A stretch of 12,400 bases of DNA from an uncultured Deinococcales bacterium (GCA_964247135.1 CAXTTL010000142.1:1-12400), one strand, 5' to 3'; positions 2 through 12,400 are shown, numbered from the stretch's first letter. Notes: a model not told the origin generated them from the sequence alone. Numbers and translations: made by a program.

Positions 2-457
2 GAGGTGATTGCCATTGACCCCGACGCGCCCAAACCCACTCGAGCCAGGTGGTTTGAACTCGACAACGCGCACCTGCTCGAGCAACCCAAACTGATTCAT
101 TGGGTTGTACGCACAGAAAACCTCGAGTTAGCCGTTCAAGAATATCCGCAACACGGACGAATTCTCGAGGCGTCGCGCGGCAATTTAAACTGGCGGATTG
201 CCGTACCAGACGACGGTCACCTCAATTTTGAAGGTTTGATTCCGACGCTTATTGCCTGGCGCGGCATTCATCCGACATCGCAACTCGAGTCACAGGGCTG
301 CGAATTCATAAAACTCCAAGGCTCTCATCCAGAGCCAGCAGCCGTGAACCACACACTCGAGCAACTTGGAGCGCAAACTTTGCTCGAGGTTTCACAGGCG
401 CCAAAAGCCAAACTGAGAGCCATCATTCAAACGCCACACGGCAGGGTTGAGTTGTGA
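2..457 (+). CDS. VOC/glyoxalase-like domain protein, 5'-truncated by the window edge
   Basis: Frame is open from position 2 (GAG GTG ATT). The motifs EVIAIDP..P...RWF.LD, L.HWVVRT, RG.L.WRI.VP.DG and P.LI.W are typical of Glyoxalase_3-type VOC proteins. Confidence 0.75.
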   Translation, partial: EVIAIDPDAPKPTRARWFELDNAHLLEQPKLIHWVVRTENLELAVQEYPQHGRILEASRGNLNWRIAVPDDGHLNFEGLIPTLIAWRGIHPTSQLESQGCEFIKLQGSHPEPAAVNHTLEQLGAQTLLEVSQAPKAKLRAIIQTPHGRVEL

Positions 458-516
458 CCCACGGCTTAGAAAAGTGTTAAACTGGGTCGCAGTTAAAATC
501 AAAGAGGTTAATTCGA

Positions 517-608
517 CTCCTGCGAGGGTTTGAACCTCAGAATTCCGAACAACGGCATCTGAGTTTTCAACAACAGGGGGTTTTATGAATTCATTCAAAT
601 CCAGGAGG
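517..608 (+). promoter_or_regulatory. Structured leader upstream of preT containing the SD (AGGAGG 603-608) and a potential anti-SD
   Basis: CTCAGA 536-541 pairs with TCTGAG 558-563. The arm 517-534 is complementary both to 566-579 and to 594-607, which includes the SD. Confidence 0.35.
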
Positions 609-615
609 GACACCC

Positions 616-1950
616 GTGGCACTTAACCCGAGCGACCTCGAGCCTCACGTTTTACAGCAAAACTTTCACGAACTGATGCCCGCCTTATCCAGCCGCGAAG
701 CCGTGATCGAAGCCACGCGCTGCCTGTTTTGTTACGACGCGCCCTGCACCCACGCCTGTCCAACGCACATCGACATTCCCAGATTCATCAAAAAAATCAG
801 CACCGAAAATACCCTCGGCGCAGCCAAAACCATCCTCGAGAGTAACTTTTTGGGCAGCACCTGTGCTCGGGTTTGCCCCGTCGAAGAACTCTGCGAGGGC
901 GCGTGCGTGCTCGGCAGCGACCACAAACCCATCGAAATTGGGCGCTTGCAACGTTACGCCACCGATTATGTGATGGACAAGAAAATAGACGTGTTCAAAG
1001 CTGGAAAACCGAGCGGTAAAAAAATCGCCGTGATTGGTGCAGGACCGGCAGGTTTAAGTTGTGCCGCCGAACTCGCCAAACTCGGTCATGCCGTCACCGT
1101 TCTCGAGAAAAAACCGCTCGCAGGCGGCTTGAGCACCTACGGCATCGTGGTTTTCCGCGAACCCGTCGAAGTCAGTCTGGCGGAAGTTGACATGGTCAAA
1201 CGTCTCGGTGTAATTGTCCAAAACAACGTCACAGTCGGCACAGATATCAGTCTTGAAGAACTGAACTCGAGTTACGATGCAGTATTTTTAGGGACTGGAC
1301 TCGGTAACGTCCCGAACCTCGAGATTCCAGGCGAAGACTTGGACGGTGTGGTGGACGGCATCGAATTTATTGAACGCACCAAAACCGATGACTTAGCCAG
1401 CATCAAAGTTGGGCAAAAAGTTGTCGTGATTGGCGCGGGAAATACCGCCATCGACGCCGCCACCATCGCCCGCAGGCTCGGCGCTCACGTCACCATGATC
1501 TACCGACGAACCAAAACTGAAATGACCGCCTACAATTTCGAGTTTGAATTTGCTAAACTCGAGGGCATTGAATACCGCTTTTTAACCGCGCCTGTCAGCA
1601 TCAAAGGCTCGGGTTTTGTTGAAGGACTCGAATGCACCGCCATGCAACTCGGCGCTCCAGACTCGAGCGGCAGACCACGCCCCGAACCCATCCCAAACAG
1701 CAATTTTGTGCTCGAGTGCGACATGGTGATCAAAGCCATTGGACAAGAAAAACAAACCAACCTCGCCCAAGAACTCGGCTTAACCCTCGAGAAAGGTTAT
1801 ATCGTCGTCAACAATCAAAACCAAACCAGCCACCCTCGAGTTTACGCTGGCGGCGACTGTGTGCGGTTAAAAGGCGATGCGAGTACGGTCATGGCAGTGC
1901 AAGACGGCAAAATTGCCGCAAAGAGTATCCATTTGAGCCTCCAGCATTAA
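616..1950 (+). CDS. preT: Dihydropyrimidine dehydrogenase subunit PreT/PydX (GltD-like FAD/NAD(P)H Fe-S flavoprotein)
   Basis: EA.RCLFC.DAPC...CP and CARVCP....CE..C Fe-S motifs, two Rossmann motifs (GAGPAG, GAGNTAID), C-terminal YAGGD. GTG start with AGGAGG SD; adjacent to preA and hydA. Confidence 0.9.
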   Translation: MALNPSDLEPHVLQQNFHELMPALSSREAVIEATRCLFCYDAPCTHACPTHIDIPRFIKKISTENTLGAAKTILESNFLGSTCARVCPVEELCEGACVLGSDHKPIEIGRLQRYATDYVMDKKIDVFKAGKPSGKKIAVIGAGPAGLSCAAELAKLGHAVTVLEKKPLAGGLSTYGIVVFREPVEVSLAEVDMVKRLGVIVQNNVTVGTDISLEELNSSYDAVFLGTGLGNVPNLEIPGEDLDGVVDGIEFIERTKTDDLASIKVGQKVVVIGAGNTAIDAATIARRLGAHVTMIYRRTKTEMTAYNFEFEFAKLEGIEYRFLTAPVSIKGSGFVEGLECTAMQLGAPDSSGRPRPEPIPNSNFVLECDMVIKAIGQEKQTNLAQELGLTLEKGYIVVNNQNQTSHPRVYAGGDCVRLKGDASTVMAVQDGKIAAKSIHLSLQH

Positions 1951-1956
1951 GCCGTG

Positions 1957-1992
1957 CTCCCTCTCCGCTGGTGGGAGAGGGTTGGAGAGAGG
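1957..1992 (+). repeat. REP-like palindromic repeat, copy A (hairpin plus G-rich tail)
   Basis: CTCCCTCTCCGCTGGTGGGAGAGGGTTGGAGAGAGG; stem CCCTCTCC 1959-1966 / GGAGAGGG 1974-1981. Confidence 0.9.
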
Positions 1993-2008
1993 AGGAATGC
2001 CAGTGATT

Positions 2009-2338
2009 TCACTCCAACATCGCCAATCGAACCCTCTCGAGCACCCCCTCGAGATTCTCGAGGATTTCATAATTCCAAAATCGCATCACCCGAAACCCTT
2101 GAGACTTAAGCCAGGCATCCCGAATTTTGTCGTATTCGCTTCCCGCATGATGATTTCCGTCGGCTTCAATAATGATTTTATGCTCGAAACACACAAAATC
2201 GACAATGTAACGCCCAAGCGGTTGTTGTCTTTTGATTTTCACGCCAAAATTGTTCCTGCGCAGATGTTTCCACAATACTGCTTCGGCAGCCGTCATGTTG
2301 GAACGCATTCGTTTGGCTCGAGTGAGAAGTATATCCAC
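2009..2338 (-). CDS. DUF559 / Vsr-like PD-(D/E)xK endonuclease
   Basis: RA+.MR.NMT.AE..LW..LR, KIKRQ.P.G.YIVDF.C.E.K.IIE.DG..H and RD..L...G+.V.RFWN are hallmark DUF559 motifs. Start codon (GTG) is uncertain, with no clear SD. Confidence 0.88.
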   Translation of the reverse strand: MDILLTRAKRMRSNMTAAEAVLWKHLRRNNFGVKIKRQQPLGRYIVDFVCFEHKIIIEADGNHHAGSEYDKIRDAWLKSQGFRVMRFWNYEILENLEGVLERVRLAMLE

Positions 2339-2386
2339 CAGTCTTTTTTAGCACATGCTGCTCGAGAATTGCGTGCTTTTGCGCCC

Positions 2387-2422
2387 CCTCTCCCCGACCC
2401 TCTCCCACCGGCGGAGAGGGAG
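2387..2422 (-). repeat. REP-like palindromic repeat, copy B (inverted relative to A)
   Basis: Reverse complement is CTCCCTCTCCGCCGGTGGGAGAGGGTCGGGGAGAGG, 3 mismatches to copy A over 36 nt. Confidence 0.9.
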
Positions 2423-2440
2423 AATTGCTTTAGGTGATGT

Positions 2441-3817
2441 ATGGCTGATTTATCGATTGATTTTTGTGGCATCAAATCCCCGAATCCTTTCTGGCTTGCC
2501 AGTGCGCCGCCAACCAATTCTGGGCATCAAATTCATAAAGCTTTTGAGGCGGGTTGGGGAGGTGCGGTTTGGAAGACGATTGGTGCGCCTGTGTTGAACG
2601 TCTCGAACCGTTACGGCACAGTCAAATACAACGGGCAAATTATTGGGCTGAACAACGTCGAACTAATCTCGGATCGTCCGCTCGAGATCAATTTACGTGA
2701 AATCGCGGAAATCAAAAAATTGTGGTCTGACCGTGCCGTCATCGTATCCGCAATGGTGGAGAGCACTCGAGAAGCTTGGAAGGACATCATTCAGCAGATC
2801 GAGGATACTGGCGCGGATGGCATCGAACTCAATTACGGTTGTCCGCACGGCATGTCTGAACGCGGCATGGGCGCAGCGGTAGGGCAAGTCCCCGAATACT
2901 GCCAGCAAATCACCAGTTGGGTCACAGAATTCTCGAGCCTGCCTGTGATCGTGAAACTTACGCCGAACGTCACAGACATCACCTATCCTGCTCGAGCGGC
3001 GGTGGCGGGTGGCGCGAATGCGCTTAGTTTAATCAACACCATCAACAGCATTGTCGGCGTGAATCTGGACACTTTCGAGTTAAGCCCGAACATTGGTGGA
3101 AAAGGCGGACACGGTGGTTATGCGGGTCCTGCGGTCAAACCGATTGCGCTGCATTTGCTTTCGCAAGTTGCTTTGGTGCAAGAGGTCGCTCGAGCCAAAA
3201 TGCCAATTTCGGGCATGGGCGGCATCATGAATTGGAAAGATGCCGCCGAATTTTTGCTGCTTGGCGCTTCGAGTTTGCAAATTTGCACGGCTGCCATGTT
3301 GTACGGTTATCGCGTTGTCGAGGACATGATTGACGGGCTTTCCAACTGGCTCGACGAAAAAGGCATCGCAAGCGTCAACGAAATCATCGGCGCGAGTTTG
3401 CCGCGCATTTCAGATTTTGGGGATTTCGATTTGGGCTTTAAAACGGTCGCCAGAATCAACCAAGATTCCTGTATTCAGTGTGATCTGTGCTATATCGCCT
3501 GCAACGACACCGAACACCAGTGCATTGATTTGTACCGTGATGGTGCGCTCGTCGCGGCAGGACATGATGCTCGAGACAATGGTAAGCACATGGCAACCTC
3601 GAGCCGTCCATTTCCGGTCATCCGTGAATCCGATTGTGTGGGTTGCGATTTATGCCATAACGTTTGCCCAGTGCAAGGCTGCATCGAAATGGTGCAAGTC
3701 CCCAGTGGACGCGAAGGCACGACTTGGCGACAACTCTCGAGCGAACGCCCTGAAGTCACGCAAGATTGGGCGGCGATGAAAGCGTACCGCGCCGAAATTG
3801 GTTTGGACATTCACTGA
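2441..3817 (+). CDS. preA: NAD-dependent dihydropyrimidine dehydrogenase subunit PreA/PydA
   Basis: NPFWLASAPPT, GGAVWKT, NVELISDR, catalytic ELNYGCPH, VKLTPN, INT, and two C-terminal CxxCxxC ferredoxin motifs. SD AGGTGA. Confidence 0.95.
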   Translation: MADLSIDFCGIKSPNPFWLASAPPTNSGHQIHKAFEAGWGGAVWKTIGAPVLNVSNRYGTVKYNGQIIGLNNVELISDRPLEINLREIAEIKKLWSDRAVIVSAMVESTREAWKDIIQQIEDTGADGIELNYGCPHGMSERGMGAAVGQVPEYCQQITSWVTEFSSLPVIVKLTPNVTDITYPARAAVAGGANALSLINTINSIVGVNLDTFELSPNIGGKGGHGGYAGPAVKPIALHLLSQVALVQEVARAKMPISGMGGIMNWKDAAEFLLLGASSLQICTAAMLYGYRVVEDMIDGLSNWLDEKGIASVNEIIGASLPRISDFGDFDLGFKTVARINQDSCIQCDLCYIACNDTEHQCIDLYRDGALVAAGHDARDNGKHMATSSRPFPVIRESDCVGCDLCHNVCPVQGCIEMVQVPSGREGTTWRQLSSERPEVTQDWAAMKAYRAEIGLDIH

Positions 3818-3861
3818 TCCCGAGCAGTCATTTTTTGTAGACTTGGTGAAAGGAGGAATCC

Positions 3862-4428
3862 ATGACCGCAACGCTTGAAAACGTGAACCTCGAGCCACAT
3901 CGTTTTACCGTGCAGGAATACCAACGAATCTTTGAGTCAGGCATTTTGCCAAGCGATCAACGCAACCAATTGATTCGAGGGGAGATTTACTTTATGGCGG
4001 CAATGGGCGCAGCACACTACAAGGCGATTCGGGTTCTGACAAAATTACTTCATCAAAAGTATTCTGATCTTTGTGATGTTGTGCCTCAAGCGCCGATTGT
4101 GGTTTGGGATGACTCCGAACCCGAGCCAGATTTTGCCCTGATACGCAGTGATTTTGCTGGCGGCATTCCCGAAGCGACAGACGTTTTGCTGGCAATCGAA
4201 GTCAGTGATTCCACACTCAAATTTGATCGCGAGAAAAAACTACCCGAATACGCTCGCTCGAGCATTCCTGAAGTCTGGATTTTCAATCTAGCAGAAGCAC
4301 AACTCGAGGTGTACCGCGAACCGAGTGGTGAACAGTTTTTGCAATTGCAAATTTTAAAACCCGAACGTGAAGTGTCGGCATTGTTCGCGCCAGAAGTCAA
4401 ACTCGAGTGGTGGAAGGTACTGGTGTAA
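3862..4428 (+). CDS. Uma2 family (DUF820) putative endonuclease
   Basis: HRFTV.EY..., LI.GEI..M...G..H, SEPEPD, LL.IEVSDS+L..DR..K...YA...IPEVWI. SD AAGGAGG. Confidence 0.9.
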   Translation: MTATLENVNLEPHRFTVQEYQRIFESGILPSDQRNQLIRGEIYFMAAMGAAHYKAIRVLTKLLHQKYSDLCDVVPQAPIVVWDDSEPEPDFALIRSDFAGGIPEATDVLLAIEVSDSTLKFDREKKLPEYARSSIPEVWIFNLAEAQLEVYREPSGEQFLQLQILKPEREVSALFAPEVKLEWWKVLV

Positions 4429-4608
4429 ATGACTTCGGAAATTGATATTGAACAAACCAAAGAATTGAATGACTTGCTTGCCAAACTAAAATCCTTACCT
4501 CGAGCGTGGCGTTTGGAAATCGTTGCTGCCCTCGAGAATTATTCATTTTATGAAAAATTGGGCGTTCCAGAGAATACTGATATTTTCCAAGTCGAGAATT
4601 TTGATTGA
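4429..4608 (+). CDS. Small acidic 59-aa protein, not in the ORF track
   Basis: ATG immediately follows the Uma2 TAA: MTSEIDIEQTKELNDLLAKLKSLPRAWRLEIVAALENYSFYEKLGVPENTDIFQVENFD*. It fills the gap before hydA. Confidence 0.6.
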   Translation: MTSEIDIEQTKELNDLLAKLKSLPRAWRLEIVAALENYSFYEKLGVPENTDIFQVENFD

Positions 4609-4642
4609 AAGTTGAATTGTTGAATTGAAAGCGAGGCTCAGA

Positions 4643-6022
4643 ATGTCATTGCTCATCAAAAACGGCGAGATCATCACGGCAGACTCGAGGTACGTGGCAG
4701 ATATTTTTGTCGAAAACGAAACGATCACCCGCATTGGGGTCAACCTCGAGACTCCAGCCAATACTGAAGTTATTGATGCCACTGGAAAGTATGTTTTCCC
4801 AGGTTTTATCGACCCGCACGTTCACGTGTACTTACCGTTCATGGCGACCTTTGCAAAAGACACCCACGAAACCGCGTCAAAAGCCGCCGTCATCGGTGGC
4901 ACGACCACGTTTATCGAAATGTGCTGCCCCAACCGCACCGAGGACGCGCTCGAGGGTTACAACCTCTGGAAGTCCAAAGCGGCGGGTCACAGCGCTTGCG
5001 ATTACAGTTTTCACATGTCGGTCACAAAGTTTGATGACAACACCGAAAAACAACTTCGTGAAATCGTGAAAGACGGCATCTCGAGCTTCAAGATTTTTTT
5101 ATCGTACAAAAACTTTTTTGGCGTGGACGACGGTGAAATGTTTAAAACCATGACGCTTGCCAAAGAATTGGGTGTGATCGTGACCGCGCACTGCGAGAAC
5201 GCCGAATTGGTCGGGCAACTGCAAGCCAAACTTTTAGCGGAAGGCAAGACTGGACCCGAATATCATGAAACCTCGAGACCCGAAAGTGTCGAAGCCGAAG
5301 GCACGAACCGTTTTGCGACCTTCCTCGAGACGACGGGCGCGACGGGTTACGTGGTGCATCTTTCGTGTCAGCCAGCCTTGAAAGCGGCGACAGCAGCAAA
5401 ATCTCGAGGTGTGCCGATTTACATCGAATCGGTGCTGCCGCATTTTATTTTGGATAAAACCTATGCCGAACGCCCAAACCATGAAGGCGCAAAGTTTGTG
5501 ATGTCACCGCCACTGCGCGATAAACGCAACCAGAAACCACTCTGGGATGCACTCGAGCAAGGATTTATTGACACGGTTGGCACGGATCACTGCCCGTTTG
5601 ATGTGGCACAAAAAGCCTTGGGTGTCGGGGATTTCACCAAAATTCCCAACGGCATTCCCGCCATCGAAGACCGCGTGAACGTGCTATACACCTACGGCGT
5701 TTCTCGCGGAAACTTGGACATTCACCGTTTTGTGGATGCTGCCAGTACCAAAAGTGCCAAACTGTTTGGCTTGTTCCCGCGCAAAGGGACGATTGCGGTT
5801 GGTTCGGATGCCGACCTTGTGATTTACGACCCGAATTATCGCGGGGTGATCTCGAGCAAAACCCAGACCGTCAACAACGATTACAACGGTTTTGAAGGCA
5901 TGGAAATTGACGGCAAACCCAGCGTTGTGACCGTGCGAGGACAGGTTCAAGTGCTTGATGGAAAATTTGTTGGAAACTCGAGCATGGGCGAGTTTTTGCG
6001 TCGCAAGCCACAACATTTTTAG
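4643..6022 (+). CDS. hydA: Dihydropyrimidinase / D-hydantoinase
   Basis: LLIKNG.I, PGFIDPHVH (HxH), GGTT, SSFK (carbamylated Lys), AHCEN, VVHLS, MSPPLR, GTDHCPF, KG.IAVGSDAD. ATG at 4643 has a GAGG SD. Confidence 0.95.
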   Translation: MSLLIKNGEIITADSRYVADIFVENETITRIGVNLETPANTEVIDATGKYVFPGFIDPHVHVYLPFMATFAKDTHETASKAAVIGGTTTFIEMCCPNRTEDALEGYNLWKSKAAGHSACDYSFHMSVTKFDDNTEKQLREIVKDGISSFKIFLSYKNFFGVDDGEMFKTMTLAKELGVIVTAHCENAELVGQLQAKLLAEGKTGPEYHETSRPESVEAEGTNRFATFLETTGATGYVVHLSCQPALKAATAAKSRGVPIYIESVLPHFILDKTYAERPNHEGAKFVMSPPLRDKRNQKPLWDALEQGFIDTVGTDHCPFDVAQKALGVGDFTKIPNGIPAIEDRVNVLYTYGVSRGNLDIHRFVDAASTKSAKLFGLFPRKGTIAVGSDADLVIYDPNYRGVISSKTQTVNNDYNGFEGMEIDGKPSVVTVRGQVQVLDGKFVGNSSMGEFLRRKPQHF

Positions 6023-6023
6023 T

Positions 6024-6467
6024 ATGAAAGCTGAATTAAAAAGCAACAATTTCACGATCTCGACCGATCAAACCCGTTTTGACCTTGAGTTGATTCACAG
6101 CGTTCTGACCAAACTTCCTTGGGCTGAAGGCGTGACGCTCGAGGTGGTGAAACACGCGATGCAGCATTCGTTGGCGTTTGGGATTTTTGAAGGAACTTCC
6201 CAAATTGGCTATGCTCGAGTCGTCACCGATTTCACGCGCACAGCTTGGCTTGCCGACGTTTTTATTCTCAATTCGCATCGTGGGCAGGGTTTGGGAAAGT
6301 ATTTTGTCAAAACCATTCTCGAGCATCCGCGTTTACAGACCGTCAAATGGTTGCTCACCACAGACGACGCCCAAGATTTGTATCGGCAATTTGGTTTTTC
6401 AGAACTTGATCCAAGCAAGTTTATGATTCGCCAACCGAACAAACATTTTAACGAAGCCGTAAAATAA
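6024..6467 (+). CDS. GNAT family N-acetyltransferase
   Basis: ISTD...D...IH..L, QIGYARVVTD, LADVFI...HRGQGLGK (acetyl-CoA motif A), L.T.DA..LY..FGF. ATG lies 1 nt after the hydA stop. Confidence 0.88.
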   Translation: MKAELKSNNFTISTDQTRFDLELIHSVLTKLPWAEGVTLEVVKHAMQHSLAFGIFEGTSQIGYARVVTDFTRTAWLADVFILNSHRGQGLGKYFVKTILEHPRLQTVKWLLTTDDAQDLYRQFGFSELDPSKFMIRQPNKHFNEAVK

Positions 6468-6482
6468 CGCTCGAGGTTAAAA

Positions 6483-7295
6483 GTGACGAATGCAATTTCC
6501 CCGCTCGTAAGTGTTAACGATGTCAGCATGATCTACCGAACTCGAGCACCGAATGGCGAAGCATTGGAAACCGTCGCCCTGAAAAATGCGAACCTCGAGA
6601 TTGGGCAGGGCGAATTTATTTCGTTGATCGGTCCGAGCGGTTGCGGCAAAACCACGTTGCTGCGCTTGCTGGCAGATTTGATTCAACCCAGCACTGGCAG
6701 CATTGGCATCGGTGGCAAAACCCCTCAGCAAGCTCGAGAAGCCAGAGCGTATGGTTATGTTTTTCAAGCGCCCGCTTTGTTCGATTGGCGCAACGTCATG
6801 GGCAACGTCATGTTGCCACTCGAGATTATGGGGTATAACCTTCAGGACCGCAAAGCCCGAGCCGAGAAAATGCTGGCGCTGGTTGGTCTCGAGAAATTCT
6901 CGAAGAATTTTCCGTGGCAACTTTCGGGCGGAATGCAGCAACGGGTCAGCATCGCTCGAGCGCTTGCTTTCGAGCCGCAATTGCTGTTCATGGACGAACC
7001 CTTCGGCGCTCTTGACGAGATCACCCGCGAGAATTTAAACCTCGAGCTTCTCAGGCTTTGGCGCGAAACAGGCAAAACCATTATTTTCGTGACCCACAGC
7101 ATTCCCGAAGCAGTGTTTCTTTCAACTCGAGTTGTGGTCATGACCCCGCGCCCAGGCAAAATTGAGAAAATCATCAACGTTGACTTGCCACACCCACGCG
7201 ATTTTGACACTCGAGAATCCCCGCGTTTCTTCGAGATTGCCACCGAAATCCGTGAATCTTTGCGTCACGGTCATGGTTACGAGGGACATGAATGA
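6483..7295 (+). CDS. ABC transporter ATP-binding protein (NitT/TauT family, probable pyrimidine uptake)
   Basis: Walker A GPSGCGKT, signature LSGGMQQR, Walker B LLFMDEPF, H-loop FVTH. Substrate is inferred from context. Confidence 0.93.
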   Translation: MTNAISPLVSVNDVSMIYRTRAPNGEALETVALKNANLEIGQGEFISLIGPSGCGKTTLLRLLADLIQPSTGSIGIGGKTPQQAREARAYGYVFQAPALFDWRNVMGNVMLPLEIMGYNLQDRKARAEKMLALVGLEKFSKNFPWQLSGGMQQRVSIARALAFEPQLLFMDEPFGALDEITRENLNLELLRLWRETGKTIIFVTHSIPEAVFLSTRVVVMTPRPGKIEKIINVDLPHPRDFDTRESPRFFEIATEIRESLRHGHGYEGHE

Positions 7296-7361
7296 TAATG
7301 GATAGTTTTCTAAATCTATGTGCGACTTGCCATTACTTCATCCGATCTAGACTTCAATTTA

Positions 7362-7403
7362 GCTCCCTTCTCCTGATGTTGGGAGAAGGGTTGGGGATGA
7401 GGG
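7362..7403 (+). repeat. Solo REP-like palindromic repeat, copy C (variant)
   Basis: GCTCCCTTCTCCTGATGTTGGGAGAAGGGTTGGGGATGAGGG; stem CCCTTCTCC 7365-7373 / GGAGAAGGG 7382-7390, followed by the same type of G-rich tail. Confidence 0.85.
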
Positions 7404-7410
7404 TAGACTG

Positions 7411-8271
7411 ATGACACGTCCAAGCAACCTTGTGCCGATGCTGGTGGTTGGTGTGGTTTTGATCGCCCTGTACTTTCCGATCATGCTGCTGGCAAATTAT
7501 CCCGCCGCCGCCCGTTCCATCGCTCGAGGTGCGGTCTTGGATTGCAAAACCGCGCTCGAGTGCAGTTTCAACATGCGCAGCCCCATCATTCCCGCCCCAG
7601 CGCAATTGTTCAAAGGTTTCTCGAGTTTGTATTTCCCGCCAACTTCAGAAACCAGCGTGCCATATAACGCGTTTTTCACTGGACTCGAGACACTTTCTGG
7701 TTTGGCGCTCGCTTCAGTGGTCGGACTGGGCTTGGCGGTGCTTCTGGTGGCTTCTCGAGCTTTTGAACGCGCCTTGCTGCCGTGGTTGGTTGCATCGCAA
7801 ACCGTGCCGATCATTGCGATTGCGCCCATGCTTGCCGTGTTGCTCGGGCAGTACGGCGTTGAAGGTTGGATTCCAAAAGCCATCATCGCGGCGTACATTG
7901 CGTTTTTCCCAATTGCGATTGGTGTGTCAAAAGGCTTGCGCTCGCCCGATCCAATTCAAGTTGACCTCATGAAAACCTACAACGCTGGCAGCCTGCAAAC
8001 TTTTTCCAAACTGCGCTTTCCCTCGAGCATCCCATACTTGTTTACGGCGTTTAAAGTTTCTGTCACGGCTGCACTTATCGGTGCAATTATTTCCGAATCC
8101 ACTACCATTTCGGGCGCAGGTTTGGGCAAGATGCTGTCCGAAAATTCTCGAGCTTCCGATGCTGTGGGCTTGTGGTTGGTCATGATTGGCAGCGCTATTT
8201 TGGGTATTTTGCTGGTCAGTATGGTGGGTTGGCTCGAGCGGGCGGTGACGCCGTGGCAACGAAACCATTAA
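7411..8271 (+). CDS. ABC transporter permease (NitT/TauT family)
   Basis: Multiple hydrophobic segments; IIPAP, SQTVPIIAIAP, FFP.....KGL.S.D....DLM.TY.A....F.KLR.P.S.PYLF (EAA-like region). Confidence 0.9.
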   Translation: MTRPSNLVPMLVVGVVLIALYFPIMLLANYPAAARSIARGAVLDCKTALECSFNMRSPIIPAPAQLFKGFSSLYFPPTSETSVPYNAFFTGLETLSGLALASVVGLGLAVLLVASRAFERALLPWLVASQTVPIIAIAPMLAVLLGQYGVEGWIPKAIIAAYIAFFPIAIGVSKGLRSPDPIQVDLMKTYNAGSLQTFSKLRFPSSIPYLFTAFKVSVTAALIGAIISESTTISGAGLGKMLSENSRASDAVGLWLVMIGSAILGILLVSMVGWLERAVTPWQRNH

Positions 8272-9254
8272 ACATTTTGTGGTTTGGTGCGGCTGGCGTT
8301 TTCATATCTTTGCTTGGAATGATTTTGATTATTGTCAACCACTGGAACTCGAGCGATGCCTGGTCTGGCTTGAGTGTGGCTTTAAGCTGCCTCTTGGCGT
8401 TGTTTGGTCTTCTAAGCGTTGGCGGAGTCTCGAGCGGCGTTGTCAGCCTTCTGAGCGCCCCTCGAGCCAAAGATAGAACGGGTTTTGACCTTGGACTTTC
8501 AATCATTTCCTTGCTTCCTGCCATTTTGCTGGCGGTGGTCGCCGTGGTCTTGGTCGAAGCTTTAATTCACGCCTTCCAAATCCCCGTCGCACAAATCCCA
8601 GCCCCAACCGCCGTGATTCAAAAATTCCTCGAGTCACGTCAAGTCTTGTGGCGCGACACCCAAACCACATTGCTTGAGGCTGGAGTCGGTTATGTCATCG
8701 GCGCAAGCTTGGGAATTTTGGTGGCAATTCTCGTCTCGAGATACCAATTTCTGAACAAGGGTTTGATGCCTTACGCCACCATTTTCTCGAGTATTCCAAT
8801 TGTTGCCCTCGCGCCCGTGATCGTGAAAGCCGCAGGACTCGAGTGGGGATCAAAAGCCGCCGTCGTTGCCATCACGATTTTCTTTCCCGTGCTGGTGAAT
8901 ACGGCAAGGGGTTTGCTCGAGGTGAACCCTTTAACGATTGACCTTATGCGCTCTTATGCGGCTCACCCAAGAAGGGTGTTCTTGGATTTACGGATTCCCA
9001 ATGCGTTGCCTTACATTTTTAACGCCCTGAAAATCAGCACCACCCTGGCTTTGATCGGTGCAATCGTTGCAGAATTTTTCGGTTCGACGGGTTCTGGTTT
9101 GGGATTCAGAATTCTGGTCGAAACGGGTCAAGCCAGTTTTGACAGCGTGTGGGCTGCCATCAACATCGCGTCGTTTTTAGGCATTATGTTTTACAACCTT
9201 GCCGCGTTGCTCGAGCGACGGGTGACGGGATGGCATGTGTCTTTTCGGGAGTAA
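8253..9254 (+). CDS. ABC transporter permease (NitT/TauT family) with extra N-terminal membrane segments
   Basis: IPAP, IPIVALAP, FFPVLVNT..GL, LM.SYAA....F..LRIPNALPYIF, GAIVAEF. GTG at 8253 chosen because it has GGTGA upstream and only a short overlap with the previous gene. Confidence 0.88.
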   Translation: MATKPLNILWFGAAGVFISLLGMILIIVNHWNSSDAWSGLSVALSCLLALFGLLSVGGVSSGVVSLLSAPRAKDRTGFDLGLSIISLLPAILLAVVAVVLVEALIHAFQIPVAQIPAPTAVIQKFLESRQVLWRDTQTTLLEAGVGYVIGASLGILVAILVSRYQFLNKGLMPYATIFSSIPIVALAPVIVKAAGLEWGSKAAVVAITIFFPVLVNTARGLLEVNPLTIDLMRSYAAHPRRVFLDLRIPNALPYIFNALKISTTLALIGAIVAEFFGSTGSGLGFRILVETGQASFDSVWAAINIASFLGIMFYNLAALLERRVTGWHVSFRE

Positions 9255-9263
9255 AGATTCTTC

Positions 9264-9272
9264 TGCTACAAT
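9264..9272 (+). promoter_or_regulatory. Possible extended -10 promoter (TGcTACAAT) for the DUF4258 pair
   Basis: TG-n-TACAAT about 20 nt upstream of GTG 9293, with a GAGG SD at 9284-9287. Confidence 0.4.
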
Positions 9273-9292
9273 TTACGAAACTCGAGGAAATC

Positions 9293-9622
9293 GTGCAGCA
9301 AAAAGCCTTTGACTTTTCGACAACAGAAATTCTTGACTGGGAGTTGAAAAACATTGATAATGCACTTCTGCGCGAAGAAATCCGCATTACCAAACACGCC
9401 CAACTTGCTGCCCAAGAGGACAATGTTTCCTTTGTTCAACTTTTTGAAGCCATTCTTGTCGGCATTCTTGTCGGCATTCCCGTCAGCAAAGACCTGCCAG
9501 ACAATAAACTGAATCGAATTCCTGGAATTAACTACGAGCACAAAATCAAGGACGGACGTTGGATTCGCATCAAAGTCGCATGGCTCGAGGGGTACGCAGT
9601 CATTACCGTGTACCAAATCTGA
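9293..9622 (+). CDS. DUF4258-like protein (putative RelE/MqsR-fold toxin)
   Basis: IRITKHA near the N-terminus and a C-terminal VITVY are typical of DUF4258. Followed by a YgiT-like gene. Start inferred from the SD. Confidence 0.65.
   Translation: MQQKAFDFSTTEILDWELKNIDNALLREEIRITKHAQLAAQEDNVSFVQLFEAILVGILVGIPVSKDLPDNKLNRIPGINYEHKIKDGRWIRIKVAWLEGYAVITVYQI
9451..9479 (+). repeat. Perfect 12-bp in-frame tandem duplication
   Basis: CATTCTTGTCGG x2 plus CATTC, encoding ILVG-ILVG-IP. Confidence 0.9.
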
Positions 9623-9630
9623 GGAGTAGC

Positions 9631-9852
9631 ATGAACACGATCTTAAATGAGACTCGAGTGACCTACACATACACCAACAAAAACGGTGCGACGGTTATCA
9701 TCAAAAATGTTCCTGCGAAGTTTTTAAAAGACGAATTTGGCAACGAGCACGAAACCTATGCGTTTGGTGTGGCGATGCGCCTTGAAGAACTGTGCAACCG
9801 AGCGTTTGAAATAGACTCGAGCGACGGTGTGATGCACGAACTCGAGTTTTGA
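9631..9852 (+). CDS. YgiT/MqsA zinc-ribbon-like protein lacking the CxxC pairs (putative antitoxin)
   Basis: TRVTYTY...G.TVIIKNVPA resembles YgiT-type domains. GAGGAG SD; directly downstream of the DUF4258-like gene. Confidence 0.6.
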   Translation: MNTILNETRVTYTYTNKNGATVIIKNVPAKFLKDEFGNEHETYAFGVAMRLEELCNRAFEIDSSDGVMHELEF

Positions 9853-9872
9853 AGTTTTACAAAACCCAAAAT
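9816..9872 (+). repeat. 57-bp direct repeat, copy 1
   Basis: CTCGAGCGACGGTGTGATGCACGAACTCGAGTTTTGAAGTTTTACAAAACCCAAAAT; identical to 10828-10884 at 52/57 positions. Confidence 0.92.
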
Positions 9873-10282
9873 TACCGTAATTCTGCTCGAATATTTCTTC
9901 CAGCTTTCCGTGGTTTTAAGGTCACAATCACATCAAACCCCAATGCCCCAGCCTGTTCAACCAAAGACCGAACCTCGAGATTGGCGTCTTCCTGTTCGCG
10001 TTGATGCACCCGTCCTCGAGAGACACTTAAATTCTGACTGACTTCCGCCAGCGTTTGACCACGTTCCGCTCGAGCGAGTGAAAGGAGTTTTCCAACGCTT
10101 CTGACCGTCACTTCGGTCTGAACTGTATTTTGAATGTCTGCGGCAGTCCAATTTTTGGCTTTGGTTTTTCGATTTGTTTTGAGAATACCCGTCTCGAGTT
10201 CTTCTGGACTGATTTCTTCCAGAAGTGCTTTCAATTCCGGTCCGATTTCACCTTGAAGCTCGAGGTTTTTTGCTTTTTTCAT
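9872..10282 (-). CDS. XRE/HTH transcriptional regulator, HigA-like antitoxin
   Basis: VG.LL..AR.ERGQT.AEV...L.VSRGRV.Q.E....NL.V.SL...A.ALG..V.V helix-turn-helix. ATGA overlap with the upstream toxin stop; GGGAGG SD. Confidence 0.8.
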   Translation of the reverse strand: MKKAKNLELQGEIGPELKALLEEISPEELETGILKTNRKTKAKNWTAADIQNTVQTEVTVRSVGKLLSLARAERGQTLAEVSQNLSVSRGRVHQREQEDANLEVRSLVEQAGALGFDVIVTLKPRKAGRNIRAELR

Positions 10283-10668
10283 GATTCCTCCCTAAAGATT
10301 TGTTTTCCAGCTTTGTACGCTCGGAAAATAGTAGCGACCTCTTCAAGTTTGTTGGCGTTGGGTTTGTCGTCTGGTTTGATCTCGGCATTTATGCAAAATG
10401 CCATGTCGTCAGCAATAAACAAATACACCCGCACACCACCTTTGATTCCACCTCGAGATCGGGTTTTGAGTTCCCAGAACGGCAGTCCAATCAGTTTTTT
10501 GAGGTATCGGCTGGAAAAGTCGTTTTGGTGAAAATCACTGAGCATTTCGATACTGGCATCAACGGCGTTCTGGTGTCCTGTTTCGGCGAACTCGAGCAGG
10601 TTTTCGATCAAGAGCGGATGTTGAGCGTTCAAGCGTGATGGAAGGTGTGGGAGACGGAGAACGATCAT
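10279..10668 (-). CDS. RelE/HigB-like (Gp49-type) toxin
   Basis: YLKKL.G.PFWELK......GGVRVY.F.......NAEIK matches the RelE/ParE-superfamily pattern. Toxin-before-HTH gene order. ATG 10668 sits just downstream of a promoter. Confidence 0.7.
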   Translation of the reverse strand: MIVLRLPHLPSRLNAQHPLLIENLLEFAETGHQNAVDASIEMLSDFHQNDFSSRYLKKLIGLPFWELKTRSRGGIKGGVRVYLFIADDMAFCINAEIKPDDKPNANKLEEVATIFRAYKAGKQIFREES

Positions 10669-10675
10669 TGGGGAT

Positions 10676-10707
10676 AGGCTAATGCCCTTTTTAAAACTTG
10701 TCAAGTT
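10676..10707 (-). promoter_or_regulatory. Sigma70-type promoter with an overlapping palindromic operator
   Basis: Minus strand TTGACA (10704-10699), 17-nt spacer, TAGCCT (10681-10676). Palindrome AACTTG-T-CAAGTT at 10695-10707 overlaps the -35. Confidence 0.7.
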
Positions 10708-10827
10708 AAAGCTATACAAAAACCAGAGCAAACTTCGAGCCGTACCAGGGTTTATGGCGTTTGGCTGTGGGGTACATGCAGCGTTACGAGCAAGCGAATC
10801 AACTTGATGTGTTTCCAGAATAGGAAG

Positions 10828-10884
10828 CTCGAGCGACGGGGCGATACACGAACTCGAGTTTTGAAGTTCTGCAAAACCCAAAAT
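10828..10884 (+). repeat. 57-bp direct repeat, copy 2 (orphan 3' end of the YgiT-like gene)
   Basis: CTCGAGCGACGGGGCGATACACGAACTCGAGTTTTGAAGTTCTGCAAAACCCAAAAT; reads SSDGAIHELEF* versus SSDGVMHELEF* in copy 1. Confidence 0.92.
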
Positions 10885-10919
10885 CAGAATTGTGTTTCTC
10901 GAGAGTTAAGTCTAGAATT

Positions 10920-11534
10920 TTATAGTTCGAGCAACTGCCAACGCTGCGCCGTGTTGATAATTCGTGTTTCACGCAAGACAGCCTCACCAGCCGCTTCATG
11001 AACATGCCCGCAAACAAAAAGCTTGGGTTGCTTCTCGCGGATGTATGAAACCGCGTATCTCGAGCCAATTCGTTTTCCAGATTTTGTTCGGTCAACATAA
11101 CCAAATGGTGGACTGTGCGAGATCACCACATCCACGTAAGGAAAATCCCACACGGCAGCTTCTTCGTCTTCATCAATCGTCATGTGCTGCCAGGAAAGCA
11201 GCATTTCAGGGCTGTCATACGCTGGAGTCAGGGCAACACCGTGAAACGTTATGCCGCTCGAGTGTTGCCATGTAACGCCATCAATTGGTGTGACACCCCA
11301 ACGATTCCAACGGTGATTGTCAAAACCAAGATCGTGATTGCCATGAAGGGCTAAAACGGTTGGGTATTTTTCTCGAGTACCCGCAATAAAATTCTCGAGC
11401 AACTTGAATTCGGCGGCTGTGTGACGGTATCCAAGGTCTGTCCAGTCGCCAGCGTGAATGAAAATATCGGCTTCTGGTAGAGACTCGAGATTTGGGAATT
11501 TATTGTGATGGTCGGAGGTAATTAACACCTTCAA
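10920..11534 (-). CDS. Calcineurin-like metallophosphoesterase
   Basis: SDHH, AGD, GNHD, SHSPP and CGHVHE motifs. TTG start with GGAGGT SD at 11546-11541. Confidence 0.9.
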   Translation of the reverse strand: MKVLITSDHHNKFPNLESLPEADIFIHAGDWTDLGYRHTAAEFKLLENFIAGTREKYPTVLALHGNHDLGFDNHRWNRWGVTPIDGVTWQHSSGITFHGVALTPAYDSPEMLLSWQHMTIDEDEEAAVWDFPYVDVVISHSPPFGYVDRTKSGKRIGSRYAVSYIREKQPKLFVCGHVHEAAGEAVLRETRIINTAQRWQLLEL

Positions 11535-11694
11535 TTGTCCACCTCCAACTACGCGAGCTTTTTAAGGATCAAAGTATTACTTTTTGATTTTGAGATGCAA
11601 TGAATTCAATCATGCAATTCCCGCATATATCGCCCGACAACCATGAATGGCGAAACACGACGCACTGGTGCAATGGATTTTAAAATAGCTGGAC

Positions 11695-12081
11695 CTAAGT
11701 CTTTACCTTCCGAATGTTCAAAATCCTTAAAAGCATGAAACTGCCATCTAAATGACGAATTTCTTCAACAACATCACAAACAAACCAAGTACCCGAATTC
11801 GGATTCCAATCACTTCTAACATGCGTGTTTGGATCACTAAGTAATTGGTCAAATCCGTGCCTGACAACATGAACACGAAATTGTACTGTTCCAGCGAGAT
11901 TAGTGTCTTCAGTTTTGTTCATCGTGTTATACAAATATAGCCACAGTTCAGTGTCGCTTTTTTGTGGGAGAGTGCTTACTTGTTTATCGAATGGGAATGC
12001 AATTAAGTTTTTTCCAGTCCCCTTCCATTCTTCCAAGAGTTCGGGAAACCAGTCAGGTATTGTGGGGTACATATAACTCAT
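11695..12081 (-). CDS. Hypothetical protein, possibly frameshifted (alternative end at 11606)
   Basis: 128-aa ORF with AGGAG SD and an upstream promoter. A -1 frame continues from about 11731 to a TGA at 11606. Confidence 0.6.
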   Translation of the reverse strand: MSYMYPTIPDWFPELLEEWKGTGKNLIAFPFDKQVSTLPQKSDTELWLYLYNTMNKTEDTNLAGTVQFRVHVVRHGFDQLLSDPNTHVRSDWNPNSGTWFVCDVVEEIRHLDGSFMLLRILNIRKVKT

Positions 12082-12122
12082 AGGTACTCCTTTTGAGGTT
12101 TTAATCTTTCACCTCAAGACAA

Positions 12123-12151
12123 AGCGTATCACTACTTATAACATTCGTCAA
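12123..12151 (-). promoter_or_regulatory. Sigma70-type promoter for the hypothetical gene
   Basis: Minus strand TTGACG (12151-12146), 17-nt spacer ending in TGn, TACGCT (12128-12123). Confidence 0.5.
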
Positions 12152-12233
12152 TTCCATCTTAAACATATGTATGGGCGACTAAGCAACTATGTTTACATTT
12201 TGCAGTTGACTTTTACGAAAACAAGTTGCGAGT

Positions 12234-12400
12234 TTAAGTGTTATCAAGAAGCGTTTTAGCTCGTTTTCTACGATCTGCGGGGATTTTTTCCAGATTCAGT
12301 ATTGACTCAGTAAGATCGTCTGGAATTACTAACCATGTACTTAAACCCCTGGACTGCGGATTACCCAAAGGTGTTTCTTCAGTTCCATTCCAGCGCAAAA
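12234..12400 (-). CDS. 3' end of a hypothetical protein entering from beyond the window
   Basis: Open frame LRWNGTEETPLGNPQSRGLSTWLVIPDDLTESILNLEKIPADRRKRAKTLLDNT*, protein-like, with stop at 12236-12234. Confidence 0.65.
   Translation of the reverse strand, partial: LRWNGTEETPLGNPQSRGLSTWLVIPDDLTESILNLEKIPADRRKRAKTLLDNT

Follow-up and report, generated by a model that had tools for sequence, protein, structure and literature searches.

The locus described here raises the question of what holds a single 6-base palindrome, CTCGAG, at very high density in a bacterial genome. The window, by which we mean the whole 12,400-nucleotide stretch of DNA that was analyzed, comes from an uncultured Deinococcales bacterium (GCA_964247135.1 CAXTTL010000142.1:1-12400). 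When every site is listed it carries 96 CTCGAG hexamers, and a preliminary description of this DNA had counted about 96. The first site lies at 39-44 and the last at 11484-11489, giving 7.7 sites per kb over the window and a mean spacing of about 120 bases within the span from 39 to 11489. Dinucleotide-preserving shuffling (200 replicates) gave a mean of 2.41 sites and a maximum of 7, and none of the 200 replicates reached 96. The excess is therefore about 40-fold, and the strong enrichment claimed in the preliminary description stands, its figure of about 30-fold being slightly low.

The same description proposed that the lineage has a system like that of the cyanobacterial highly iterated palindrome (HIP) HIP1 (GCGATCGC), based, for example, on an orphan CTCGAG methyltransferase. 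HIP1 itself has gone unexplained for thirty years and has been thought to be confined to cyanobacteria. Our literature search found no report of iterated CTCGAG in Deinococcota and no paper that joins CTCGAG with the term “highly iterated palindrome,” and the word is absent from the available portion of Elhai 2015 (PMC4390886). The results below show that a weak additive advantage has acted on the exact duplex hexamer over the whole history of the Deinococcales family to which this bacterium belongs, and more briefly or more weakly on accessory DNA; we tentatively favor the reading that CTCGAG tags kin DNA.

Frequency and constraint of CTCGAG

The assembly from which the window derives (G000, in which the window is contig C142) comprises 5.09 Mb in 386 contigs, the longest of 116 kb, has a GC content of 52.7%, and is 84% complete. 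CTCGAG is its commonest hexamer, occurring 33,925 times (6.66 per kb) versus 1,371 expected from composition, an excess of about 25-fold. Each of the 386 contigs has between 2.6 and 11.3 sites per kb, and the poorest 4-kb stretch of the assembly still holds 5; binning by k-mer content would drop contigs without CTCGAG, so the absence of site-free contigs is weak evidence.

Such an excess might arise as a by-product of codon usage or of a favored Leu-Glu (LE) peptide. In keeping with this idea, 61% of the coding sites lie in the CTC-GAG frame, and GC-rich relatives favor these codons, as in the Thermus-like genus g9, whose genomes have about 1 CTCGAG and about 1 GAGCTC per kb. The nulls speak against it. 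Across the 4,302 open reading frames (ORFs) called in this analysis, which cover 87% of the assembly DNA, the coding sites divide 17,662/4,506/6,683 over codon phases 0, 1, and 2, whereas within-gene shuffling of synonymous codons predicts 3,116/325/582 (excesses of 5.7-, 13.9-, and 11.5-fold) and shuffling of codon order predicts 1,215/189/313. A dicodon-preserving null, which is circular for the in-frame CTC-GAG pair, predicts 2,471 and 3,564 sites in phases 1 and 2, so that a 1.8- to 1.9-fold excess remains in the two noncircular frames under the very shuffle that the preliminary description had named as one in which its enrichment could vanish. Density is higher outside the ORFs (7.47 per kb) than inside them (6.53 per kb), Leu is encoded by CTC in only 24% of cases and Glu by GAG in 46%, and GAGCTC is absent altogether. 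The shuffle nulls and the intergenic density, together with Glu-Leu (EL) pairs at expectation (observed/expected ratio [O/E] of 1.01), refute the by-product explanation, to which we give next to no chance.

Where the encoded protein permits a site, CTCGAG is realized in 76.8%, 43.3%, and 47.0% of cases in phases 0, 1, and 2 (odds ratios of 26, 35, and 24), and the intergenic excess is at least as strong, in agreement with the earlier claim that the enrichment is independent of reading frame. A HIP is a palindrome at least about 15-fold over-represented genome-wide, in all frames and in noncoding DNA and beyond what codon use explains, and CTCGAG is such a palindrome. The nine one-off variant pairs of the hexamer total 22,412 observed versus 24,184 expected (individual O/E values of 0.08 to 1.74), and TCGA not within CTCGAG occurs 20,685 times versus 19,771 expected. 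The ratio of sites to one-off variants, 33,925:22,412 versus an expected 1,371:24,184, is about 27 times the neutral value and corresponds to a scaled advantage of about 3.3 per site. Overall, a weak, directional force at the DNA level favors complete CTCGAG over its alternatives by about e^3.3 (25- to 35-fold odds); its strength is the same whichever reading frame is considered, and noncoding DNA shows it to the same degree; it overrides codon choice.

The same pressure has added Leu-Glu and Ser-Ser pairs to proteins. Leu-Glu pairs have an O/E of 2.37 in the proteome (23,009 pairs, of which 76.8% are encoded as CTCGAG), versus 1.01 for Glu-Leu (9,799 pairs), and Ser-Ser pairs have an O/E of 1.62. 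In the hydantoinase gene of the window, about 6 of the 10 sites fall at positions where a compatible peptide was already present in 67 outgroup orthologues, such that synonymous choice is enough, and 3 to 4 of the 10 required an amino acid change (LA to LE at 5552, ISA to ISS at 5851, and ERG/EKG to NSS at 5977). CTCGAG is also retained well. In four congeners with 85 to 88% DNA identity, 58 of 74, 49 of 62, 51 of 66, and 36 of 40 window sites are kept (77 to 90%), versus 41 to 47% of hexamers overall that are identical in the same comparisons, a roughly twofold better retention of CTCGAG. Of 13 family loci, 4 to 13 retain any given one of the 10 hydantoinase sites.

Spacing between sites is near-exponential (coefficient of variation [CV] of 0.96), with a 95th percentile of 406 bases versus 444 expected and a 99.9th percentile of 1,262 versus 1,024 expected. 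Gaps of less than 20 bases are under-represented, and a gap of 6 is never seen, because it would create GAGCTC. The assembly contains no CTCGAG hot spots or oriC-type clusters, the maximum of 10 sites in 400 bases being no outlier. Weak half-site preferences flank the hexamer in genes and between genes alike, with A at -3 (frequencies of 0.36 and 0.43, respectively) and G at -1 (0.39 and 0.35), and the flanks show no cooperativity, GCTCGAGC occurring 4,225 times versus about 5,050 under flank independence.

G000 has also been purged of nearly all other GC-containing 6-base palindromes, of each of which about 1,400 to 1,700 copies are expected: GAGCTC occurs 0 times, GGGCCC once, CGGCCG 3 times, AGGCCT 4 times, CGTACG 5 times, and GGATCC 7 times. 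GGCC is found 380 times versus 24,474 expected, and CTAG has an O/E of 0.07. Avoidance of GAGCTC is separable from the excess of CTCGAG, since the family genome G008 contains 568 GAGCTC yet 4.3 CTCGAG per kb.

Phyletic spread, methylases, and captured DNA

All 19 species-level genomes of the GTDB family, which span five genera, carry 12,028 to 35,442 CTCGAG sites, or 4.3 to 6.8 per kb on rounded genome sizes, and one of them is a single contig. The force predates the split of these five genera. The preliminary description had anticipated two objections, an enrichment confined to this locus and an assembly artifact; the excess is found throughout the assembly, in 19 of 19 family genomes, including the single-contig one, and in named metagenome-assembled genomes (MAGs) of other projects. 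At the hydantoinase locus, relatives among MAGs labeled Deinococcales, from several projects, have 4.4 to 9.2 sites per kb, named Meiothermus and Calidithermus loci have 1.0 to 3.1, and loci of Deinococcus pimensis and of acidobacteria have 0 to 0.3.

We extended the scan to 150 further genomes of the phylum, in which genera and families carry handles (g and f) without names. The 77 genomes of a Deinococcus-like genus (g7) contain 26 to 1,010 sites each. In the 27 genomes of the Thermus-like genus, 1,455 to 2,803 CTCGAG stand against 1,113 to 2,680 GAGCTC, each at about 1 per kb, with no CTCGAG-specific excess. Three genera (g13, g18, and g19) have 1.4 to 3.4 CTCGAG per kb and few GAGCTC, and we equate them with the Meiothermus/Calidithermus group solely by the matching densities of the named loci. 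In 148 kb of such named loci the coding sites number 174/33/27 over the three phases versus 64/6.1/7.7 in the shuffled sequences, and the intergenic density is 1.88 per kb; the acidobacterial control loci give 23/5/1 versus 23/4.1/5.9, with 0.06 per kb between genes. A weaker, frame-independent form of the excess therefore exists in culturable Meiothermus and Calidithermus and not in Thermus-like genomes. Expansion of the Uma2 endonuclease family was considered as a correlate and rejected: there are 24 matches in G000 and 6 to 40 in family genomes, and copy number does not follow CTCGAG density across the order, since g9 genomes lack an excess despite their 10 to 16 copies, and a g13 genome without any copy has 1.4 sites per kb.

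The preliminary description also called for a search for a CTCGAG methyltransferase without its restriction enzyme. G000 encodes MmeI-type enzymes, two C5 methylases, an HsdM, and a 1,502-amino-acid (aa) Eco57I-like frame. Of its N6/N4 methylases, one adjoins an MvaI/BcnI nuclease, a second adjoins a NotI-like nuclease, and a third looks like an orphan. We surveyed PF01555, PF07669, PF00145, PF02086, and PF02384 over G000 and five family genomes that are 91 to 94% complete, including the single-contig one, and clustered the resulting 67 methylase-like ORFs at a minimum of 40% identity over 60% of length. Each genome has only a handful of methylases and repertoires differ between genomes; within these five Pfam families, the most widespread clusters reach 3 of the 6 genomes, and one 94% complete genome shares none. 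The single-contig genome (G011) has no PF01555 match, and G008 has no PF00145 match. Individual candidates were rejected as drivers. The orphan-looking 349-aa N6/N4 methylase of G000 (contig C36) occurs in only 5 of 18 relatives, the HsdM-like proteins of about 500 aa from five genomes share 27 to 32% identity apart from one pair at 68%, and two D12-class groups occur in 3 genomes only, each.

A profile search for the XhoI nuclease family (PF04555) gave no match in G000, the only family genome so searched; of 151 genomes of the phylum, 4 have the nuclease gene, one copy of which is broken. Next to the nuclease lies an N6/N4 methylase of 340 aa, with about 70% identity between the three intact systems. 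The 19 family genomes gave no orthologue of this methylase (the best partial match scores 63.8 bits over residues 230 to 315, and G011, G003, and G015 give nothing). The intact systems lie in three genomes of another family of the order (L337 at G021:C1:73699-77256, L335, and L336), where the nuclease gene is convergent with an N6/N4 methylase gene of 340 to 354 aa, and these genomes have 0.7 to 1.8 CTCGAG per kb, the site not being purged; in the fourth genome, G031, the nuclease gene is interrupted by stops. Elhai's HIPs are marked by a conserved methylase of matching specificity, and sequence comparison yielded none in the family. A HIP in that sense would have a word-specific methyltransferase wherever the word is frequent, and no such enzyme emerged among the orthologues searched, specificity not being readable from sequence. 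The HIP1-like system of the preliminary description is accordingly borne out as a genome-wide, frame-independent, and conserved word, and its orphan CTCGAG methyltransferase is unsupported. The main texts searched on the Meiothermus ruber methylome do not name CTCGAG for this species, the motif list being placed in supplements.

Accessory DNA that appears to be acquired is poorer in sites. The poorest stretches of the assembly are sharply bounded islands with 1 to 2 CTCGAG per kb, versus 6.7 genome-wide, that encode a STAND-type NTPase, subtilases, an HD/TPR protein, a major facilitator superfamily (MFS) transporter, a DDE transposase, TraG/TraC-like transfer proteins, and a sugar-uptake cluster. 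Among them, L147 (G000:C75:13000-19420) carries TraG/TraC-like conjugation proteins, L149 (G000:C17:18000-26000) a DDE transposase beside unknown ORFs of 810 and 780 aa, and L146 (G000:C238) a STAND-NTPase-like protein of 1,419 aa; these three are likely acquired mobile or defense DNA. The pattern suggests that accessory and acquired DNA has yet to catch up in CTCGAG density. Across the 66 predicted tRNAs the density is about 2 sites per kb, and the assembly contains no 23S rRNA.

CRISPR arrays sample the DNA that enters these cells. An array on contig C221 of G000 (about 6962-8137; also C9:61-168) has 16 to 17 repeats of 37 bases with CTCGAG at positions 10 to 15, and at least seven further genomes of the family have repeats of this type, CTCGAG being retained in each variant. 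HIP1 similarly sits in a Synechocystis CRISPR repeat, according to the available part of the source (PMC6604393). The 112 unique spacers of eight family genomes (3,899 nucleotides) comprise 3,339 hexamer windows, of which 27 are CTCGAG (8.1 per kb), versus 0.91 sites expected (Poisson P of ~3e-30), and at least one site is present in 25 of the 112. Along the first 90 spacers, 22 sites are spread by fifths as 8, 3, 3, 4, and 4, with a mild excess in the first fifth. One G000 spacer matches, at 35 of 37 bases, an AhpC/TSA-family redoxin gene of G000 itself (C25:927-961) next to an FtsW/RodA gene, and was derived from self or close kin; for another spacer, three family genomes give an 89 to 96% match in a PAS/GAF sensor gene, and a further one partly matches a rhamnosidase gene. 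Captured DNA thus bears CTCGAG at host density, part of it being chromosomal DNA of kin or self.

Four 26-base spacer cores had no exact match among viral contigs, and the prophage TerL ATPase family was found in 0 of the 19 family genomes. Five GC-rich IMG/VR contigs (L204, L184, L163, L172, and L174) reach 3 to 4.4 CTCGAG per kb, and the hexamer is in excess in their intergenic DNA as well as in every reading frame; in L204, for example, the phase counts are 23/11/3 versus 13/0.8/0.6 after shuffling. These contigs were chosen for three clustered sites and are a biased sample, and among the matches listed the densest have GC contents of 0.58 to 0.71 and none has the composition of the family. 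In public read sets, only three freshwater runs were found, with 6 to 9% of the words of the window.

A possible tag for kin DNA

Our preferred reading, to which we give a probability of about 0.35, is that CTCGAG is a tag for kin DNA, read on the duplex during uptake or the ensuing recombination; it is close to the transformation signal that the preliminary description had offered as an alternative. Site-rich fragments would be taken up or integrated more often, and CTCGAG would spread by molecular drive as the uptake sequences of Neisseria and Haemophilus do; accumulation by such a drive was reportedly treated by Maughan, Wilson and Redfield in 2010. A 6-base tag could discriminate through density alone, which would lead to about one site per 150 bases, and a dedicated, conserved methyltransferase would not be needed. 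Cultured members of the phylum are naturally transformable, and G000 has homologues of the competence proteins ComEC (a 768-aa frame) and DprA (368 aa), both of which also occur in nontransformable bacteria. We favor the tag because of this transformability and these two proteins, and because captured DNA is site-rich and partly from kin; since the CRISPR spacers are site-rich, the DNA that enters and is sampled carries CTCGAG. Two further reasons are that restriction repertoires vary while other palindromes are purged, which fits a long exchange of DNA across restriction barriers, and that Thermus, which takes up DNA without sequence preference according to the available text of PMC6561018, is the genus that lacks a CTCGAG excess. 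The case has recently been made for HIP1, too, as an uptake sequence (Rodriguez-Cruz et al. 2026, PMC13756078, available portion). Like the DNA uptake sequences (DUS) of Neisseriaceae and the uptake signal sequences (USS) of Pasteurellaceae, CTCGAG is less dense in DNA that looks recently acquired, at 1 to 2 per kb in the islands versus 6.7.

Several points weigh against this preference. Known uptake sequences are 9 to 12 bases long, nonpalindromic, and present about once per kb; CTCGAG is a 6-base palindrome at 6.7 per kb with weak flanks, and a palindrome fits a symmetric enzyme of the restriction-modification type more naturally. Both the uptake bias for CTCGAG and its receptor are putative. 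Near-random spacing gives no sign of selection for evenness, and ComEC and DprA are also present in bacteria not known to be transformable. An uptake drive does not readily explain the word in lytic phages, and the excess in all frames of the viral contigs, biased sample that they are, fits a self mark or an intracellular bias better. Site-rich spacers could also reflect phages and plasmids of the family that acquired CTCGAG for another reason, and only 3 of the 112 spacers were traced to chromosomal genes. It is possible, if doubtful, that the hexamer serves more widely as a “kin watermark,” written by the family, by its mobile elements, and, more weakly, by cultured Meiothermus relatives, and used by a reader other than a methylase for uptake, recombination, or self-recognition. 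If true, it would be the densest uptake-like or self-marking signal known and an independent second origin of the HIP phenomenon, in genetically testable strains, under a pressure strong enough to rewrite about 13,000 dipeptides of the proteome.

In Elhai's model of methylation-linked HIPs, a resident methyltransferase would modify CTCGAG, and methyl-directed repair or recombination would fix mismatches toward the site. A 6-base palindrome is the typical target of a type II methylase, and the available portions of the sources report that alternate cyanobacterial HIPs accompany cognate methylases (PMC4390886), that a Nocardia orphan methylase has CTCGAG as its motif, with clusters near dnaA (PMC4752239), and that the effect of HIP1 on transformation depends on methylation (PMC13756078). 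We nevertheless regard this explanation as unlikely in the family, in view of the 67 methylase-like ORFs without an orthologous group in more than 3 of 6 genomes (the genomes being 57 to 94% complete), the lack of an orthologue of the XhoI-linked methylase in 19 family genomes, the presence of the 349-aa orphan-looking enzyme in only 5 of 18 relatives, and the absence of oriC-type site clusters. A self mark resembling Chi, at which a processive AddAB-like nuclease, or a defense system fed by it, would be attenuated, seems quite unlikely as well; on this reading densely placed sites would shield the cell's own DNA, and invaders would be selected to copy them. AddAB-like gene pairs (ORFs of about 900 to 1,000 aa with PDDEXK_1) occur in families f1, f2, f4, and f5, and G000 has a 989-aa PDDEXK_1 ORF, with adjacent pairs in relatives, the AddAB identity being putative; the search covered 2 Deinococcus-like (f3) genomes, which show no CTCGAG enrichment, and gave no such pair there. 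The small additive advantage per site (S of about 3.3) would suit a probabilistic signal, and the site-rich captured DNA and the viral contigs with an excess in all frames would suit invaders that copy it. Thermus-like genomes, however, have the AddAB-like pair without the excess, and the phyletic contrast comes down to one branch. A search of 41 genomes of the order yielded no RecC, and the known Chi is asymmetric, acts on one strand, and is enriched few-fold, whereas CTCGAG is its own reverse complement.

Ordinary selection could instead maintain the hexamer as a word for a nucleoid or chromosome-organizing protein, which is how Xu, Lawrence and Durand read HIP1, from its conservation and periodicity (PMC5861425, available portion). 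Conservation of CTCGAG well beyond background and the shared weak flanks in genes and between genes are consistent with such a role, but spacing is near-exponential, long gaps are not lacking, there are no hot spots, and a function in chromosome structure does not predict host-density CTCGAG in captured foreign DNA; we consider it very unlikely. A bias of the replication or repair machinery, with no reader and no function, would affect all resident DNA, phage-like DNA included, would build up with residence time, as the islands suggest, and could vary in strength between genera. Against it, the excess is confined to the exact hexamer, with the one-off variants and TCGA elsewhere near expectation, and no bias of a polymerase or of repair that we know of is directed at a palindrome of 6 bases, so that a bias of this kind appears very improbable indeed.

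Whichever agent reads it, a second, independent, and denser case in another phylum makes the HIP phenomenon general. The order offers a graded series, with no excess in Thermus-like genomes, about 3 per kb in Meiothermus/Calidithermus-like ones, and about 6.7 per kb in the family. No conserved methylase was found that could act as a confounder, and the intermediate members are culturable, so that uptake, methylation, and repair can be tested directly. Cyanobacteria do not offer contrasts of this kind. CTCGAG is also a clear example of a DNA-level pressure that reshapes protein sequences, and in practice its skewed k-mer content affects binning, gene calling, codon models, and the choice of restriction enzymes.

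Setting of the window sites and comparison with known systems

Twelve of the 13 ORFs listed in the window, on both strands, contain 84 of its sites; the per-gene tallies total 42/22/21 over phases 0, 1, and 2, one site in an overlap of permease ORFs being counted twice. On the plus strand, the 3' part of a Glyoxalase_3-like gene (2-457) has 7 sites (6/1/0 by phase) and is followed by a PreT-like oxidoreductase gene with Fer4_20 and Pyr_redox_2 domains (616-1950; 10 sites, 7/1/2), a 151-aa ORF without a Pfam match (1982-2437; 5 sites, 3/1/1), a PreA-like dihydropyrimidine dehydrogenase gene with DHO_dh and 4Fe-4S domains (2441-3817; 8 sites, 1/4/3), a gene for a putative endonuclease of the Uma2 family (PF05685) between the PreA-like and hydantoinase genes (3862-4428; 4 sites, 3/0/1), and the hydantoinase/dihydropyrimidinase gene (4625-6022; 10 sites, 4/1/5). 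Genes for an ABC transporter ATPase (6483-7295; 9 sites, 4/5/0) and two ABC permeases (7411-8271, 8 sites, 3/3/2; and 8172-9254, 10 sites, 4/2/4, with 1 in the overlap with the first) complete this strand. The minus strand carries a gene for a sigma-70 region-4 protein (9872-10282; 5 sites, 3/2/0), a 200-aa ORF without a Pfam match (10279-10881; 4 sites, 2/1/1), and a metallophosphoesterase gene (10920-11534; 5 sites, 2/1/2). The remaining 12 sites start at 4499, 4531, 6138, 6214, 6318, 6470, 9281, 9584, 9653, 9816, 9841, and 10898, in the 2,142 nucleotides of the window outside the ORFs, and Rfam gave no match anywhere in the window, whose genes are of ordinary kinds.

The genes between 616 and 9254, with their PreT-like, PreA-like, hydantoinase, and ABC transporter products, look like a cluster for reductive degradation of pyrimidines or hydantoins, and their order is kept in congeners except for variable inserts upstream of the hydantoinase gene. 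The last 911 bases (11490-12400) have 0 CTCGAG versus about 6 expected at genome density and a GC content of 39%, and include a 128-aa ORF on the minus strand (11695-12081) without a Pfam match; this tail may be the edge of an acquired island.

Among known systems that use the same word, those of the XhoI/PaeR7I type share the recognition sequence, and their nuclease family exists in the phylum, but such systems are expected to deplete their own site, the nuclease was not found in G000, and the partner methylase has no orthologue in the family. An orphan methyltransferase of Nocardia uses the same hexamer outside restriction (Blow et al. 2016, PMC4752239, available portion); there, the motif clusters near dnaA and the orphan methylase is conserved, whereas the Deinococcales family shows no clustering and no conserved methylase was found. 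Chi, as read by RecBCD or AddAB, is likewise a short over-represented word that marks an organism's own DNA, and a putative AddAB-like pair is present here. Chi is generally known as asymmetric, strand-oriented, and few-fold enriched, whereas CTCGAG is palindromic, and RecC was not found in the 41 genomes.

DUS and USS are, as commonly described, longer than CTCGAG, asymmetric, and about six times less dense, and an uptake bias has been shown for them, that of CTCGAG being putative. Much is shared with these words, which are cited in PMC6561018: each is a lineage-wide over-represented word whose density varies between related genera, that lies in coding DNA with effects on peptides, and that is sparser in acquired islands. 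Homologues of competence genes are present here. HIP1, for its part, has DmtA and DmtC, and no conserved cognate methylase was found for CTCGAG. HIP1 and the alternate cyanobacterial HIPs, as described in the available portions of PMC4390886, PMC5861425, and PMC13756078, are like CTCGAG in being GC-rich palindromes, tens-fold enriched, and present in all frames of genes and in spacers. HIP1 and CTCGAG also share conservation beyond background, presence in a CRISPR repeat, avoidance of many other palindromes, and a function yet to be explained. HIP1 has 8 bases and belongs to cyanobacteria, and CTCGAG has 6 and belongs to Deinococcota; for HIPs a density of about 1 per kb is quoted (PMC4390886), and CTCGAG occurs 6.7 times per kb and, unlike HIP1, has measurably rewritten the proteome (Leu-Glu O/E of 2.37).

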